59,537 bases of DNA from NCBI GenBank assembly GCA_035489815.1, contig DATHJH010000013.1, positions 1 to 59,537 on the forward strand, written 5' to 3'. Made by a program: the position numbers and the translations under genes. How positions within the stretch are numbered: the stretch's first letter is position 1; each line of letters starts with the position of its first letter. Below, one piece after another: positions 33,796 through 59,386 of the stretch. Below the pieces are notes generated by a model. The model was not told the DNA's origin. It saw only the letters and a list, made by a program, of their open reading frames with translations, and ran no database searches. This DNA is from Candidatus Limnocylindria bacterium (GTDB lineage Bacteria; Patescibacteriota; Saccharimonadia; Saccharimonadales; JAGQNK01).

Positions 33796-35124
33796 CTACC
33801 TTCCAAGTTTTTTAATGGCTGCCTGAATCTGTGAAAAGTTCTGTATGCCAGCAGCAGGAATGAGGGCTGACTGGCCAGTCGGAGTGGTGTAGCTGGCCAG
33901 CAGATTTTTGCCGTTGATGTCCCGCAAGGTCACGGGCTGTAGCTTGTCCTCGGGTACGCTGGTGAAGAGCCGGTACAGGGGCAGGACTTCGCCGATCTGT
34001 ATGTCAGTTTTAACGTTGTTGCCCGCGGCGTCAAAGATCTTGCCGTTTGTACGCGGGTCAAGGATTAACTTCCAGTCCAGTTCGTTTTTAATGGCCCCAA
34101 AGACCTGTTGCTGGTTTTGGGTGCGGTTAAAGTCTGACAGGGGAAAACCGTAGGAACCATAGGTGGAGCCGCGGGCGCGGGTCAGGCGCAGAGCCGTCTG
34201 GCCGTCTATGGTATGGGTGCCGTTGCTCAGCTTTAGCTTGCCGCCTTGTTCACGGGGGAAGTTTGGGTCGTAGATGCCGCGGGGGTCGGGACTTTTTATG
34301 GTCACACTGACGCCGTCCAGGGCATCCACAACCTCTTTGACTGCAGTGTAGTTGATGAGCGCGTAGTAATGCAGTTCTATGTCCAGGTTGTCGCTGATCA
34401 CTTTTTCCAGCAAGCCCATACCGCCGCGGGGGTAGTCGGTGCCACGGAACTTCATGGTTTCGCCAGCCTGGTAGGCTTCATTGACTTTGGCGGCACCATA
34501 GTCAGGAATGGTCACGTACAGATCACGCGGTACGCTCAGCATGTATCCGGTGTGGCTGTCTTTGTCCAGACTGAGGATAAGGACCGAGTCTGTAAGCAAG
34601 GCTCCGGCATGTCCCGGGTCATCGACAGAGTAGCCCACCAGCAAGATGTTTACTCTGCCGTCCGCAGTCGCTTGCAGTTCGTCCGTGAGTAGTACTTTCC
34701 AGGCATTGTTGGTGCCAAACAGCTTTTTGCTGGCCCCGGAGAAGTTACGAAAATCCCAGGCGGCAACGACTGCAAGAAAAATAAAAGGAACCAGGAAAAG
34801 CAGTATGAGCAGTCTTTTCCAGATTTTACGCTTTTTCCCGGGTGGGGCCTCATCCACGTCCGGCGTCGTAAATTTGGCCGGCTGGTAAGAGGTGGTTGTT
34901 ATAGCGTGGTAGTTCTTAGAACCCATCCAGGATCCTTTCTCCTTGCCGAGACCACTTTTCGGGTGTGAGCCGCTTGTTTTTTGCTCAGAAAGGTACCTAT
35001 CGGTACCTTTCTGAGCAAAAGGCGGGCGGATTGCATGCGAAAACTGGTCGGAGTCAGTGGAAAAGATCCTGGATGGGTTCTTAGGCTGGGGGAGAGGGGT
35101 CTTCTTGGTTTTTTTAGAACCCAT
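33796..35124 (-). CDS. LytR-CpsA-Psr (LCP) family protein with MITE-modified N-terminus
   Basis: RVNILLVG, LTDSVLILS, LSVPRDLYV, ALRLTRAR, DFNRTQNQQ; the ATG at 35124 lies inside a MITE TIR. Confidence 0.92.
   Translation of the reverse strand: MGSKKTKKTPLPQPKNPSRIFSTDSDQFSHAIRPPFAQKGTDRYLSEQKTSGSHPKSGLGKEKGSWMGSKNYHAITTTSYQPAKFTTPDVDEAPPGKKRKIWKRLLILLFLVPFIFLAVVAAWDFRNFSGASKKLFGTNNAWKVLLTDELQATADGRVNILLVGYSVDDPGHAGALLTDSVLILSLDKDSHTGYMLSVPRDLYVTIPDYGAAKVNEAYQAGETMKFRGTDYPRGGMGLLEKVISDNLDIELHYYALINYTAVKEVVDALDGVSVTIKSPDPRGIYDPNFPREQGGKLKLSNGTHTIDGQTALRLTRARGSTYGSYGFPLSDFNRTQNQQQVFGAIKNELDWKLILDPRTNGKIFDAAGNNVKTDIQIGEVLPLYRLFTSVPEDKLQPVTLRDINGKNLLASYTTPTGQSALIPAAGIQNFSQIQAAIKKLGR
34919..35080. 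mobile_element. GAACC-MITE copy B (subtype 1), in frame within the LCP gene
   Basis: 162 bp, TIR GAACCCATCCAGGATC, TTA/TAA duplication on both sides. Confidence 0.95.
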
Positions 35125-35277
35125 TTCAAAACCCCCTCTCTGCTGCAAACCATGTCTGGCGGACCAAATTGCCGTTTTGTTTCGCAGCGTATCTACGGAT
35201 ACGCTTTGTCACAAGAACAACAATTTCGCCCTGCCAGAACATGCTTTTCGCCCTGAAAGGGGATTTGAAATGGGTTC
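35117..35277. mobile_element. GAACC-MITE copy C (subtype 2) at the LCP start
   Basis: 161 bp, TIR GAACCCATTTCAAA, TA on both sides; homologous to 49081-49304. Confidence 0.92.
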
Positions 35278-41637: not shown

Positions 41638-41811
41638 GAACCCATCCAGGATCTCGCTCCCGATGCCAAAATTGCTCCCTTCTTGTATGAAAAGCGAGTC
41701 CCAATTCGTTCTGGTTTGTCTGGCGTACCCGTGGGTACGGCAGACGGATCAGGGCGGATTGGGGCCGGAATGGGCGGTTTTGGGCCGGGATTGGAGATTT
41801 TGGATGGGTTC
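41638..41811. mobile_element. GAACC-MITE copy G (subtype 3)
   Basis: 174 bp, TAA on both sides; followed by a further GAACCTATCC end remnant at 41815. Confidence 0.93.
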
Positions 41812-41845
41812 TAAGAACCTATCCCAAGGAGAGAGTGTTCAGGGG

Positions 41846-43224: not shown

Positions 43225-43487
43225 GGGATCCTCCGGTTATTTATTTAACACAGTATTATTAGCACTACCGTTGTAACTGGAATGCTAGAATTCACACAGA
43301 GCCCACCTCATACCTCCATCCCGCCCGGTTTTCCGGTCAGAAGCCGCCCATTCTGGCGTCAATTCGCCCCAACTTCCCCGCCGCACCTATGGGTACGCTC
43401 ACTGGATAAAAGGTGGAACCAGATGTATCCCTACTTGTTGCGTTTGCGGCGAAAACTAGAGCAAATCAGCGCTGGAGTTGAGTAGCC

Positions 43488-43829
43488 CTACAGCGCTAAA
43501 ACTAATCGCATGCCTTCGTCGATTTGTTGCATCGCTGTATGATCGATCCAACCGATCTTTTCTGCCAGAAACTGTTTGTCTATGGTAATAACTTGTGAGA
43601 CATTCGCTACTGACTCCCGACTTAAGCCTGCCTTCTCTCCCGTTAATTTTACATTCCCGGGAGCTGTAGCCAGGCGGAGGTTTGAAGTAACGGCGACCAC
43701 AACTATGGTACTGATGCGGCTCTTATTAAAGGTATCGGCCTGCACAATCACCACTGGTCGTCTGTAGCCCGGCTCAGAGGCTACTGGTTCTGACAGCTCA
43801 GCCCACCAAACTTCCCCTCGCTTCACCAT
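43488..43829 (-). CDS. mazF: MazF/PemK-family endoribonuclease toxin
   Basis: MVKRGEVWW, SEPGYRRPVVIVQ, SRESVANVSQVITIDK. Confidence 0.95.
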   Translation of the reverse strand: MVKRGEVWWAELSEPVASEPGYRRPVVIVQADTFNKSRISTIVVVAVTSNLRLATAPGNVKLTGEKAGLSRESVANVSQVITIDKQFLAEKIGWIDHTAMQQIDEGMRLVLAL

Positions 43830-44059
43830 TTATCCTTGAGCAAGGATTGACGTTGTAGCTTTTGAAGTGTTGGATCAAGAGAAGAGTCTTCCGTGCCGTA
43901 GACTTCATTCAATTTCTTGGTGACATTGTCGCCATTTTGTCTTTCCATATAGCTTTTAAGAGCTTGAGTATATAGCTGGCTACGTGATTTACCAAGCTGG
44001 CTTGCCAGCTTTTCGGCTGACTCAAAAACTTTATCGGGAATGGATATAGCTGTCTTCAT
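43823..44059 (-). CDS. Ribbon-helix-helix antitoxin
   Basis: MKTAISIPD..FESAEKLA..LGKSRSQLY; overlaps the toxin start. Confidence 0.9.
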   Translation of the reverse strand: MKTAISIPDKVFESAEKLASQLGKSRSQLYTQALKSYMERQNGDNVTKKLNEVYGTEDSSLDPTLQKLQRQSLLKDKW

Positions 44060-44066
44060 ATCTAAA

Positions 44067-44096
44067 AGTATAACTTTTGTTATACTGTCGAGTCAA
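44067..44096 (-). promoter_or_regulatory. TA promoter with overlapping operator
   Basis: TTGACT-18 nt-TATACT, 7 nt before ATG; palindrome AGTATAAC-TTTT-GTTATACT at 44067-44086. Confidence 0.75.
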
Positions 44097-44150
44097 TCCC
44101 TGCCGCAAGCCGAATGATACAGCATTGTTGTAGAAGTTAGAGCCAGTTTT

Positions 44151-44546
44151 CTAGTTCAATTTTCGAGGCCACATGTATAAACGCCAATATGTTTTTAGCC
44201 TAGAGCTATCCAGGCTATGAACTAAAATGGCAAAGAAACCAGCCGGATCGTGCAAAACAGTATGCAGATTAGCGCGTATTTCCTTGCCATACCTACCAAG
44301 CCAATGATGACCATCTTCTACATGGTAAGCTTCATGCTGCAGTAAGGCTCTCTCAACTCTTTTTGGAAGATTCTCACGTAAATAAATCCTTCCTTTATAG
44401 ACGTAGCCAAACAAACTAAAGTCAGCTTCTCTAAGTTTTGAATCATTTATATAGTGAACTTGGTATCTTTTGCCATTAATGGTACGAGGTACTGTTCGAA
44501 TTGTTTCTGTACTTTCAATAATTTTGCCTAAATAAGAAGTGGCCAT
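44151..44546 (-). CDS. Hypothetical protein with HExxH motif
   Basis: LLQHEAYHVE; AT-rich; TATAAT 6 nt before ATG. Confidence 0.7.
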   Translation of the reverse strand: MATSYLGKIIESTETIRTVPRTINGKRYQVHYINDSKLREADFSLFGYVYKGRIYLRENLPKRVERALLQHEAYHVEDGHHWLGRYGKEIRANLHTVLHDPAGFFAILVHSLDSSRLKTYWRLYMWPRKLN

Positions 44547-44819
44547 ACGATAATTATAGACCAATGAGTGTGGCACGTTCTGGAAACTGGGGCGGATAAA
44601 AGAAAATGGATCGATTTTGGCACCCGGGGAGCGAGATATGAAATGGGCTCATAGAAAATTTCTTTGGAGGTTGCCGCAACCACAGTAGAAATTCTAAGTT
44701 GTAAGTAATTCAGGCAAGGCAGGCGATAGCAGCCGACATATGCAACCGTTCATACTGCAGTATTTGTATAATGGCTATATACTGGTAACATAATCTGCGT
44801 TTCAAGGAGAGGAGGTACT

Positions 44820-56878: not shown

Positions 56879-57487
56879 ATGTCTTTTAGAAGTGTTGCTG
56901 CATTTGGTGCCGGAACAGCGTTAGCCGTTGGAATAGGTTGCTCGTCTGAAGAAGGATCGAGCGTTCCTGATTCTGCTAAAGAAATATGCTCCACGGCATT
57001 TGGCGCTATACGGCAGCTTGAGGGGTATGAAGTTTTTACAGAAGAAAGTGATCCTGTAGTTTCGCATGAGACAATCAACCCGCTAGATCCAGGTGTTGTT
57101 TATTTGAGAGGATGCGTTGCTGTTAACCCAGCGGATGGGGCAAGGCTGGGTATTGATCCTTTATTTACTGAGGTAGAGCGGTCAGATGGTCAGCGCGGGG
57201 TGGATTTTGCACTGGAGGAAGGCGCACGACCAGGAAGAGAGGCAGTATCTGTCCTGAGTGCTACAGGCGAGGGAGCCGGACTTTCCTCCGAGTATATTGG
57301 ACTACCTTCACTACCGGCCGGGGTATTACTGGCAACGTGTGAGGATGGTGATATTCCTACGCTAAGCCTGGAAGGGGTCACAGAAACCCGTAACCCGGAT
57401 GGGGATGTGGCTTACGACGCTTATACTGTGCAAGACGCTCAGTTTGGGTGTGCAGACCCAGGAGGCCTGATCTACATCCACGAGTAA
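56879..57487 (+). CDS. Hypothetical lipoprotein-like protein (orphan)
   Basis: Signal ending AVGIGC (lipobox-like); 202 aa. Confidence 0.6.
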   Translation: MSFRSVAAFGAGTALAVGIGCSSEEGSSVPDSAKEICSTAFGAIRQLEGYEVFTEESDPVVSHETINPLDPGVVYLRGCVAVNPADGARLGIDPLFTEVERSDGQRGVDFALEEGARPGREAVSVLSATGEGAGLSSEYIGLPSLPAGVLLATCEDGDIPTLSLEGVTETRNPDGDVAYDAYTVQDAQFGCADPGGLIYIHE

Positions 57488-57556
57488 GCACAGCTGCTTG
57501 AGTCGGGTTCGGGAAGACGTGTCTGGCCGGAGCGGCGCATACCGTATAATACGGAT

Positions 57557-59362
57557 ATGAGCGAGGGGCGTTCTAAGAACCCATTCCAAATCTTTTTCTC
57601 TGACTCCAACCGCTTTTCGCATGCAATCCAACTGCCTTTTGCTTCAAAAGGTAGCTATGGCTACCTTTCAAAACAAAAAACAGCCGGCTCACACCCGAAA
57701 AGCGGTTTCGGCAAGGAGAAAAGATCTGGAATGGGCTCTAAATACCTGCTGAAGCTAACGCTTCTTTTTGTGATTTACTTTGCGACGGGGAGGTTGGGAC
57801 TCAGCCTGGATGCAGTCAGTGGGTTTGCCGCACTGGTCTGGGCTCCTACTGGCATTGCTTTGGCGGCGATGCTTATTCTGGGCTTTCGCTACTGGCCAGG
57901 CATTGCGCTTGGCGCGGTGCTGGTCAATATGGCGGCCGGGGCTCCGCTGCTGGTCGCCCTCGGCATTGGATGTGGCAATACGCTGGAGGCGCTCGCCGGT
58001 GCGTATGTGCTAAAACGTTTTACCAGGTTTCAGATTTCTTTGGAGCGGGTTGCCGATGTGCTGAGGCTTATCTTTTTTGCGGCAATTGCCAGCACGTTAG
58101 TCAGTGCCACCATTGGCGTGACGAGCCTGCTATTGGGTGGTCTTGTTGCAGGAGAGGGGTACGGGGAAACATGGATTGCCTGGTGGATTGGGGATATGTT
58201 GGGGGCACTTATAGTTACGCCGTTGCTCCTGGTCTGGCACGAACGCCTGCGCAGGCCGCTGGATCCACGCCGATTTGCCTCCGCCGCAGTGCCTATCCTG
58301 CTGTTGGCTGCAGTAAGCATCGTGATCTTTCGCGGTCTGCCCGGGCGGGACATCAGGCCGCTTACCTTTGCCTACATTATTTTCCCGATTTTAATATGGA
58401 TTGCGCTGAGGTTTGGCCAGCGCGGCAGCGTCACGGCCATGTTCATAGTGTCATGCATTGCTATTTGGGAAACAGTCACTACCCACAACTATTCCAGTGC
58501 GCTTACGCTAAGCCAGAATCTTTTGTTGCTACAAAGTTTTATAGGCATCACCGCTGCGACTTTTATGACCATGGCGGCGGTGGTTTCCGAGCGCGAGCAA
58601 ACCCAGAAACGTCAACAGTACCTGGAACAAAAAGCAGCGCTGCTCACCAAACAGCGCTCCAGACTGGAGATGCTGAACCGGGCTAAGGACGAATTCATAT
58701 CAATTGCCTCTCATCAGCTCCGCACGCCTGCCACCGGCGTTAAGCAATACCTGGGTATGTTGTTGCAGGACTACGCCGGCCGCCTGAGCAAGCAACAGCA
58801 TGCTCACGTCACTACGGCATATGAAAACAACGAGCGGCAGCTAAAGATTATTGAAGATTTACTACACGTGGCGCGGATAGACGCCGGGAAACTGCCGCTG
58901 AACAAAACAACTTGCGACCTGAATAAGCTGATGGGCGAGGTAGCAGCCCAGCAAGCCGAGGCTTTCAAGGAGCGAGGCCAGAAATTGTTGTTTAGCCCAG
59001 CCAAAGGTTCTATAAAGGCCAGGGCCGATAAGGAGCTGCTGCGTATGGTCCTGGAGAACCTCATAGACAACGCCGGCAAGTATTCGCCAGCTGGCGAAAA
59101 GGTTCGTCTGAGCGTAAGCAAAATGGATAGGATGGTTCGGCTGGAGATACACGACAAGGGCTTTGGCATCACCAAAAAAGATCAGAAAAAGTTGTTTCAA
59201 AAGTTTTCCCGGGTGGACGCCCACTCTAACCTCATAGGTGGTTCCGGCCTCGGGTTATACTGGGCAAAAAAGGTTATTGACTTGCATGGGGGCAGTATTG
59301 ATCTTACGTCCGAGGCGGGCGAGGGCTCTACTTTTACGGTTAAGTTACCAGATAGTAGGTAG
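57557..59362 (+). CDS. MASE1-domain sensor histidine kinase with in-frame MITE near the N-terminus
   Basis: MASE1 (VWAPTGIALA, WWIGDMLG, WIALRFG), ASHQLRTP H-box, ENLIDNAGKYS, GSGLGLY; TATAAT 6 nt before ATG. Confidence 0.95.
   Translation: MSEGRSKNPFQIFFSDSNRFSHAIQLPFASKGSYGYLSKQKTAGSHPKSGFGKEKRSGMGSKYLLKLTLLFVIYFATGRLGLSLDAVSGFAALVWAPTGIALAAMLILGFRYWPGIALGAVLVNMAAGAPLLVALGIGCGNTLEALAGAYVLKRFTRFQISLERVADVLRLIFFAAIASTLVSATIGVTSLLLGGLVAGEGYGETWIAWWIGDMLGALIVTPLLLVWHERLRRPLDPRRFASAAVPILLLAAVSIVIFRGLPGRDIRPLTFAYIIFPILIWIALRFGQRGSVTAMFIVSCIAIWETVTTHNYSSALTLSQNLLLLQSFIGITAATFMTMAAVVSEREQTQKRQQYLEQKAALLTKQRSRLEMLNRAKDEFISIASHQLRTPATGVKQYLGMLLQDYAGRLSKQQHAHVTTAYENNERQLKIIEDLLHVARIDAGKLPLNKTTCDLNKLMGEVAAQQAEAFKERGQKLLFSPAKGSIKARADKELLRMVLENLIDNAGKYSPAGEKVRLSVSKMDRMVRLEIHDKGFGITKKDQKKLFQKFSRVDAHSNLIGGSGLGLYWAKKVIDLHGGSIDLTSEAGEGSTFTVKLPDSR
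57577..57738. mobile_element. GAACC-MITE copy F (subtype 1), in frame within the kinase gene
   Basis: 162 bp, TAA on both sides; homologous to copy B. Confidence 0.95.
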
Positions 59363-59386
59363 TCGTTCTACCCTGATGGGTTCTAA

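Follow-up and report, generated by a model that had tools for sequence, protein, structure and literature searches.

An IS5-derived miniature transposon in the first codons of a sensor kinase gene of a Saccharibacteria genome is probably read through in frame

A sensor histidine kinase gene near the right-hand end of a 59,537-nucleotide stretch (hereafter the window) of contig DATHJH010000013.1, from a Saccharibacteria genome, is interrupted by a short palindromic element. The element is a miniature inverted-repeat transposable element (MITE) of 162 bp which, judging from the orthologues of the kinase, lies between codons 6 and 7 (TCT AAA) of the native gene. The explanation that best fits the evidence as a whole, and which we consider likely, is that a MITE derived from an IS5-type transposon was inserted in the kinase gene and is read through, the inserted segment being a passenger of the protein. 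An earlier note, made from the letters of the window alone, had pointed to this locus and placed its host in the candidate phyla radiation (CPR), as befits a Saccharibacteria genome.

All features of the locus lie on the + strand. A -10-like box, TATAAT (57545..57550), stands 6 nt 5' of the native ATG in a leaderless-type layout. This ATG and the first 6 2/3 codons (MSEGRS-K; 57557..57576) are separated by the element from the rest of the gene. The element itself (57577..57738), a copy of the core subfamily, has the ends GAACCCAT at 57577 and ATGGGCTC at 57738, as read from the sequence. It is flanked by a TAA target-site duplication, the left copy at 57574..57576 and the right one, followed by ATACCTGCTGAAG, at 57739..57741. 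The terminal inverted repeats (TIRs) are about 23 bp long, GAACCCATTCCAAATCT... being complementary to ...AGATCTGGAATGGGCTC. The left TIR (GAACCCATTCCAAATCTTTTTCT; 57577..57599) is the same terminus that bounds an IS5-type element on another contig, C5. The right TIR (57716..57738) carries an outward-facing, in-frame ATG (57731-57733), and AAGGAG (57713-57718), a Shine-Dalgarno-like (SD-like) motif, is found 12 nt 5' of it. The open reading frame (ORF) at 57557..59362 encodes a MASE1-HisKA-HATPase_c sensor histidine kinase, with 601 codons from the native ATG and 543 from the TIR ATG, and its MASE1 domain match begins at residue 68. In the kinase frame, the element has no stop and encodes NPFQIFFSDSNRFSHAIQLPFASKGSYGYLSKQKTAGSHPKSGFGKEKRSGMGS. 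It is also a near-complete palindrome, with two arms of 80 nt and 73% complementarity, and the predicted RNA fold of 57557-57790 has an energy of -85.6 kcal/mol (z = -6.4 against shuffles). The sequence features listed in the earlier note, namely the TATAAT, the ATG, the TAA pair, the 162-bp element and the TIR ATG, are all present. The kinase gene has elements on both sides: a solitary repeat end, ATGGGTTC (59376-59383), lies 14 nt past its stop, and this TIR remnant is followed by a TAA and a further element that reaches the contig end (59376..59537, + strand).

The relatives of the kinase place the element inside an older gene. The insert is missing from seventeen orthologous kinases. Among close homologues in a collection of 5.8 billion proteins, it is absent from 16/16 aligned orthologues, which are 540-556 aa long; such an alignment had been named beforehand as a check. 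With the kinase orthologues in two related genomes, the alignment begins only at residue 58-62. The orthologue N-termini, MIEGRLGYIAKLTLLL (from a 73% identical protein), MTGEQLRYSRKLAVIF and MRSERGAYFLKLSLLF, follow the general pattern M-x-E/G-G-R..Y, and the nearest orthologues start with MIEGRLGY, MTGEQLRY and MRSERGAY. Without the element and one TAA, the window reads MSEGRSKYLLKLTLLF / MSEGRSKYLLKLTLLFVIYFATGRLGL, which aligns with MIEGRLGYIAKLTLLLVVYFATGRLGL of the nearest orthologue; the prediction that removal of the element would give a normal MASE1 start is thus upheld by the joined flanks. At the DNA level, the window has TATAAT-ACGGAT-ATG AGC GAG GGG CGT TC/TAA/element, with a spacer of N6, while the nearest relative (locus L124) has TATAAT-ACAGGAC-ATG ATA GAG GGG CGT, with a spacer of N7, and the next one (L002) TATAAT-ACATCGAT-ATG. 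The -10-like box, the ATG and the codons just after it are ancestral, being shared with the orthologues in the same arrangement. The kinase retains all three domains along with every residue invariant across 17 sequences. A scan of metagenomes yielded no near-identical kinase, the best match being 41% identical over a 73-residue piece.

Leaderless-type starts of this kind seem to be common in the Saccharibacteria genome under study. Spacings of 6-9 nt from TANAAT to ATG are over-represented genome-wide, and 38-56% of the ATGs so placed are the start of an ORF with 100 codons or more, the share among all ATGs being 17%. The layout TANAAT-N6-9-ATG is seen at about one-tenth of the long genes. 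The earlier remark that the leaderless pattern is common thus holds for the long ORFs of the whole genome. A sigma-70 promoter scan of 57350-57850 gave no two-hexamer promoter; with no recognisable -35 beside the TATAAT, its call as a promoter depends on its conservation and on the genome-wide pattern.

The family of the element was searched for (blastn and iterated nhmmer) in the whole genome, which comprises 1.40 Mb in 45 contigs with 51% G+C. There are about 64 loci with shared termini, 12 of them closely related to the kinase copy. In the window, the TIR motif has 6 matches, compared with 0.37 expected by chance. Several near-identical copies are held by contig ends, at least 10 of which fall within copies, indicating that the family was recently active and has fragmented the assembly. 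The kinase copy differs from the family consensus at 21/162 positions, and its divergence from each other copy is 12% or more. The core subfamily has TAA/TAA or TTA/TTA at its flanks, a 3-bp TWA duplication; in the other subfamilies, the flanking duplications are ATT, AAA, GCC or TA. A target duplication of 2-4 bp (TNA/TWA) is a trait of the IS5 family, and the TAA or TTA of the core subfamily agrees with it.

A probable autonomous partner of about 990 bp is located on contig C5 (C5:27370-28361), with the same termini, a TAA duplication, and DUF4096 and DDE_Tnp_1 domains. The Pfam matches, PF01609 (DDE_Tnp_1; E = 7e-30) and PF13340 (DUF4096; E = 1.5e-14), fall in two adjacent frames, which are presumably joined by a frameshift. 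By its domains and ends, this is the IS5-family-type partner of the MITE, of the IS5/PIF-Harbinger kind. The kinase element is shorter than about 500 bp, has no transposase gene, bears TIRs and a duplication, belongs to a family of many copies and shares its ends with the probable autonomous partner; apart from the read-through frames, which match no family, it has no open frame. It thus qualifies in every respect as a MITE, as the earlier note had held on its TIRs and flanks, and it derives from an IS5-family transposon. A known RNA family was considered for the element and rejected, as Rfam at E up to 1 returned only sub-threshold microRNA-hairpin matches. Further, a paired-terminus pattern was run against 596 Gb of sequence, in which about 0.3 chance matches were expected, and more than 100 stretches matched. 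These belong to Saccharibacteria, Berkelbacteria, Omnitrophota, Planctomycetota, Lewinellaceae/Saprospiraceae (Bacteroidota) and others; the elements of other phyla have the termini in common with the kinase copy and no internal sequence similarity to it.

The 162 bp of the element and the 3 bp of the duplication make 165 bp, that is, 55 codons, with no stop. The target TAA is placed as NNT/AAN, and the frame enters the element at base 2, which is the frame of the right-repeat ATG (GGA ATG GGC TCT AAA). Because 162 + 3 bp gives 55 codons and the frame entered is stop-free, the 601-codon frame of the kinase stays open, in agreement with the frame preservation claimed at the outset. The kinase-type frame is open in 5/5 full 162-bp copies and the opposite orientation in 4/5. 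In neutral simulations from the consensus, the frame remains open with P ~0.55-0.68 per copy, and in all five copies with P = 0.07. The variable columns are distributed 16:15:17 over the codon positions, and nonsynonymous changes stand to synonymous ones at about 3:1 in single-difference codons. Selection for the open frame or the peptide is unsupported, given this joint neutral probability and the even spread of substitutions.

The inserted peptide does not behave as a conserved protein module. This candidate was ruled out by a phmmer search with the 56-aa peptide against 1.84 billion representatives, which returned only a protein of the same genome (contig C25) and one weak match to a repeat protein (E = 5e-4). 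The segment is basic and hydrophilic, with an isoelectric point of 10.3 and a grand average of hydropathy of -0.83. In an AlphaFold (AF2) model of the 601 aa, residues 1-58 have a predicted local distance difference test score (pLDDT) of 28-43 and no secondary structure, and membrane helix 1 starts from residue 59. The model gives weak evidence that the segment is disordered, low pLDDT being expected where the alignment is without depth. The insert looks like a passenger and not a functional domain.

Two other proteins carry the core subfamily in frame. In an LCP gene of the window, a core copy (34919..35080, - strand) sits between native codons 14 and 15, with TAA at 35081-35083 and 34916-34918. 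Its insert is identical to that of the kinase at 39/56 residues, in the same frame and orientation; the earlier count had been 38/55. The same gene holds a second element, a 161-bp copy of the MITE-C subfamily (35117..35277, - strand), between native codons 2 and 3. With both elements excised, the LCP gene reads MRKKTKKTPLPQPKNYHAITTTSYQP / MRKKTKKTPLPQPKNYHAITT, whereas the orthologues have the N-termini MRKKPKHTPEPLPKNYHSITTSSYQP and MRKDTQKAAVPQPKNFHALTT and the start MRKKPKHTPEPLPKNYHSITT. Comparison of the excision product with these N-termini puts the core copy within the native coding sequence, so that the sharing of the insert by two unrelated genes, as first noticed, is borne out. A 138-bp deletion variant of the core (C25:12314-12452) is inserted in frame in an acidic protein of 551 aa, at 7 codons from the stop, and contributes 47 residues (KNPLQIFSSDSDHFSHAIGLPHLSNQKTAGSHPKDGLGKEKRFGVGSK). 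Only three core-subfamily copies, those of the kinase, LCP and C25, are intragenic, and each is within 15 codons of a protein end.

These observations suggest the following course of events. As the comparison with the orthologues shows, a MITE inserted at the TAA spanning codons 6 and 7 of the kinase gene, 3' of its leaderless-type start. Transcription would still begin at the conserved -10 box, with AUG 57557 at or close to the 5' end of the message. Ribosomes starting from this 5'-terminal AUG must traverse the element because it has no stop, and by reading through it they would give a kinase of 601 residues. A basic, probably unstructured segment of 55 residues would then be located in the cytoplasmic tail, just before membrane helix 1, where little harm is expected. 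On balance, the insert-bearing 601-aa protein would be the main product. As for the added 55-aa peptide that the earlier note claimed, the frame for it is open and it may be translated, a start at MGSKY being a live rival.

The strength of this rival can be judged from the outward ends of the elements, which are equipped with start signals. The outward terminus reads (G)GGAGGGGATTTGAA-ATGGGTTC in most subfamilies and AAGGAGAAAAGATCTGGA-ATGGGCTC in the kinase copy, in each case an SD-like motif and then an ATG. SD-like motifs peak 5-10 nt before starts in this genome; the distance is 9-10 nt in the common subfamilies and 12 nt in the kinase copy. At 14/87 outward ends, an ORF of 100 codons or more continues straight from the TIR ATG or GTG, compared with 3 and 5 for the other two frames. 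In an ABC exporter gene (contig C18), MGSNIVKTLGLMRS is found here and MKNIVKTLRLMGS in a 90% identical relative, MKNIVKTL having become MGSNIVKTL. The relative shows the empty site, TACAAT-N9-ATG AAA AAT ATT, and the site in the studied genome reads ATG ACT CA/element/TAA TATT. In the LCP gene, similarly, the TIR ATG of the MITE-C element (35124-35122) supplants the native ATG (35284-35282), and MRKKTKK has become MGSKKTKK. In both genes, as reconstructed from the relatives, the TIR ATG has replaced the native start two codons upstream. The element and the duplication together measure 3n+1 in these two cases, which puts the native ATG out of frame with the gene.

Elsewhere in the genome, the superfamily probably persists in first codons because its outward repeat end has an SD-like motif and an ATG. 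The two length classes would be translated in different ways: 3n elements would be read through, while in 3n+1 elements the relay frame of the old start ends at a TGA, 1 nt before the new ATG. In the LCP MITE-C, this relay frame is open for 52 codons from the native start to the TGA at 35128-35126. Four relay frames (52, 53, 53 and 88 codons) end in TGA-N-ATG, in the LCP gene, in the ABC exporter gene, at C22:11442 and in a UbiA-like gene at C18:13848; we infer the latter two to be further start replacements from hand reconstruction alone. The TGA-N-ATG relay has the layout that would be expected for termination-reinitiation. Relay frames ended by TGA are open at 10/15 such ends in the studied genome versus 33/145 in other phyla, where each frame is open at 22-26% of the ends as against 37-61% here. 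Fusion through the TIR ATG is weakly enriched in the other phyla (25:16:8). The 3n core subfamily has no TGA, and CTGG or TGGA precedes its ATG.

Insertions were also seen exactly on start codons. At C5:11531, C18:84441 and C42:10056, the gene's own start, as (A/T)ATG, comes directly after the repeat end, and the same layout occurs in other Saccharibacteria (loci L038, L044, L084, L089, L109 and L110). In these insertions, the TIR ATG lies in frame 9 nt 5' of the gene's own start (MGSM...).

It is tentatively proposed that the ends of the superfamily have evolved as translation-restart cassettes, with an outward SD-like motif, a TGA and an ATG 1 nt further on, in a body free of stops. With an insertion in the first codons, ribosomes would start at the old AUG, terminate at the TGA and start again in the frame of the gene. 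Leaderless genes would be especially suited to this, and the 3n variants would be read through as a harmless loop. If this proposal is true, such 'translation-transparent' transposons would be fitted to genomes with almost no intergenic DNA, and their repeat ends would be natural, portable translation-initiation modules. The earlier note laid its emphasis on the in-frame peptide; the open frame stands, and the more distinctive feature is the outward SD and ATG with the TGA-N-ATG relay.

Several points weigh against read-through in the kinase gene. A very stable hairpin, with about -70 of the -85.6 kcal/mol, starts 20 nt past the native AUG, and it might make translation slower or be a target for RNase III. 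In public gene calls, the TIR ATG is taken as the start, both for the kinase (P0003, 543 aa) and for the LCP gene (P0123). The openness of the frame is without demonstrable selection, and read-through may be luck inherited from a master copy. If the insertion is very recent, moreover, the intact gene says little about tolerance.

The chief alternative, which we consider unlikely, is that the kinase is translated only from the TIR ATG as a protein of 543 aa (MGSKYLL...), the preceding 174 nt being a structured leader or a dead upstream frame. In the ABC exporter and LCP genes, such an ATG has taken the place of the native start, and 14 TIR starts join long ORFs in the genome. The AAGGAG upstream of ATG 57731 and the public gene calls speak for the short form too, and its N-terminus, MGSKYLLKL, is as near to the orthologues as the native one. 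Yet the hairpin stem encloses both the TIR ATG and its SD-like motif, and the 12-nt spacing is marginal for this genome, which weakens an internal start without excluding it. Further, the TGA-N-ATG restart signal found in 3n+1 elements is missing from the kinase-copy subfamily. The gene retains its native TATAAT-ATG and first six codons intact and homologous to those of the orthologues, and any ribosome from the leaderless AUG makes the long form, as no stop separates the two ATGs.

It is very improbable that the insertion silenced or crippled the gene, the hairpin blocking translation or triggering RNA cleavage and leaving a young pseudogene. A very stable hairpin 20 nt into the message would fit this, as would the many histidine-kinase paralogues (32 matches listed within its own genome). 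However, the ORF is full length, with its three domains and all the invariant residues kept, and 21/162 differences from the consensus do not give the copy a brand-new look. The other insert-bearing genes, LCP and the ABC exporter, are likewise intact. Least credible of all is an assembly artefact in which a repeat copy was misjoined into the kinase gene of a metagenome-assembled genome: the family does interrupt the assembly often (at least 10 contig ends in copies), but the unique flanks jointly rebuild the orthologous N-terminus to the base, the TAA duplication is exact, the kinase copy is at least 12% different from every other copy, and an independent longer assembly (a 294-kb contig) has a 100% identical protein starting at the TIR ATG (P0003).

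A known system that resembles the read-through insertion is that of the Rickettsia palindromic elements (RPE-1 to RPE-10), described by Ogata et al. in 2000 and 2002 and summarised in PMC10969869. The RPEs, too, are palindromic repeats of about 150 bp in a small genome, found in frame in unrelated genes; each copy adds a related peptide, and the hosts apparently tolerate the copies. The likeness does not extend to the sequence, as the peptide studied here has no Rickettsia match among the 1.84 billion representatives. What sets the present element apart from the RPEs is its clear TIRs, its TWA duplication, its ends with SD and ATG and the IS5-type partner within the genome; the three intragenic core copies, moreover, are at protein ends, not in enzyme bodies. 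The analogy drawn in the earlier note is thus a fair one at the functional level, a palindromic repeat lying in frame in the kinase, LCP and C25 genes.

Another parallel is provided by the mycobacterial interspersed repetitive units (MIRUs), which are said to have been described by Supply et al. in 1997. MIRUs are small repeats with a short ORF that overlaps the stop and the start of the flanking genes, by which translation is passed on. The relay frame of the 3n+1 relatives, ending in TGA-N-ATG in four sister elements, is an equivalent of this. MIRUs lie between operon genes as tandem minisatellites without TIRs, whereas the elements of the studied genome are transposon-derived and lie inside first codons. 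The kinase copy differs still further, as it has no stop or restart and is open to being read straight through.

In their structure, the elements resemble the Tourist-like MITEs (PIF/Harbinger-IS5, for example mPing) and the bacterial IS5-derived MITEs. These are also short and non-autonomous, have TIRs and a TWA duplication (TAA/TTA), and depend for their movement on a DDE transposase of the IS5/Harbinger kind. The canonical target duplication of Harbinger is 3 bp, with 0-3 bp in its relatives (PMC12730594). Unlike them, the element studied here belongs to a CPR bacterium, is a full-length palindrome and has no stop in the frame set by its terminal ATG, and its copies cluster on start and stop codons, not in intergenic DNA. 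QMITE1/QMITE2 (PMC5896051) and the intragenic ERIC and BOX elements (PMC10969869) likewise overlap gene ends, add or replace terminal residues and make in-frame C-terminal extensions, of which the C25 copy is the counterpart. In Coxiella burnetii, all the functional genes affected by QMITE1/QMITE2 are hit at the 3' end (PMC5896051), whereas 5' ends dominate in the studied genome and the element supplies the start codon.

The earlier note was not aware of any description of a coding-compatible repeat of this sort. As a general statement this did not stand, since in-frame MITE fusions have been described for RPEs, ERIC, BOX, QMITE1 and Anabaena MITEs (PMC10969869). It stood for Saccharibacteria, for which a literature search returned no description of MITEs (the matches for 'MITE' were arthropod mites). 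Nor did the search bring up any report of transposon ends providing an SD and an ATG in place of a start codon. What the present genome appears to add is an IS5-derived, translation-compatible MITE in a CPR bacterium, the ends of which act, or at least are used, as replacement starts.

In the gene-dense genomes of CPR bacteria, which measure about 1 Mb, selfish DNA has little space. The present genome illustrates one route by which transposons persist in them, namely on start and stop codons, where the genes stay translatable. It offers orthologue-backed cases in which a transposon end has replaced a start codon (MKN... to MGSN...), and one case of a membrane sensor kinase that may carry an insert of 55 residues. 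For annotation, it serves as a warning that mobile elements can give rise to 'MGS...' N-termini and to short 5' ORFs.

The element superfamily as a whole occupies gene boundaries. At least 7 full-length copies adjoin the stop codon of a long upstream ORF. In the window, at 41638-41830, two elements adjoin with a single common TAA (GGGTTC TAA GAACCTATC at 41806-41823), and the first of the pair begins on the TAA stop of a 436-codon ORF; the elements seem to insert beside one another and on stop codons. At four Planctomycetota loci with the same termini (L061, L067, L073 and L080), there is read-through into ORFs of 370-530 codons (W-V-L...), in a frame one base past that of the TIR ATG. Lastly, a 1.35-kb stretch of the window (43299-44650) has the same terminal repeats at both ends (GAGCCCACCTCATACCTC ... 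GAGATATGAAATGGGCTC). It contains no transposase; a PemK/MazF-type toxin gene (43488-43829; Pfam E = 5e-27) and a family-less ORF of 141 aa are found inside it. This stretch looks like a cargo-carrying derivative, or mobile insertion cassette, of the same transposon.

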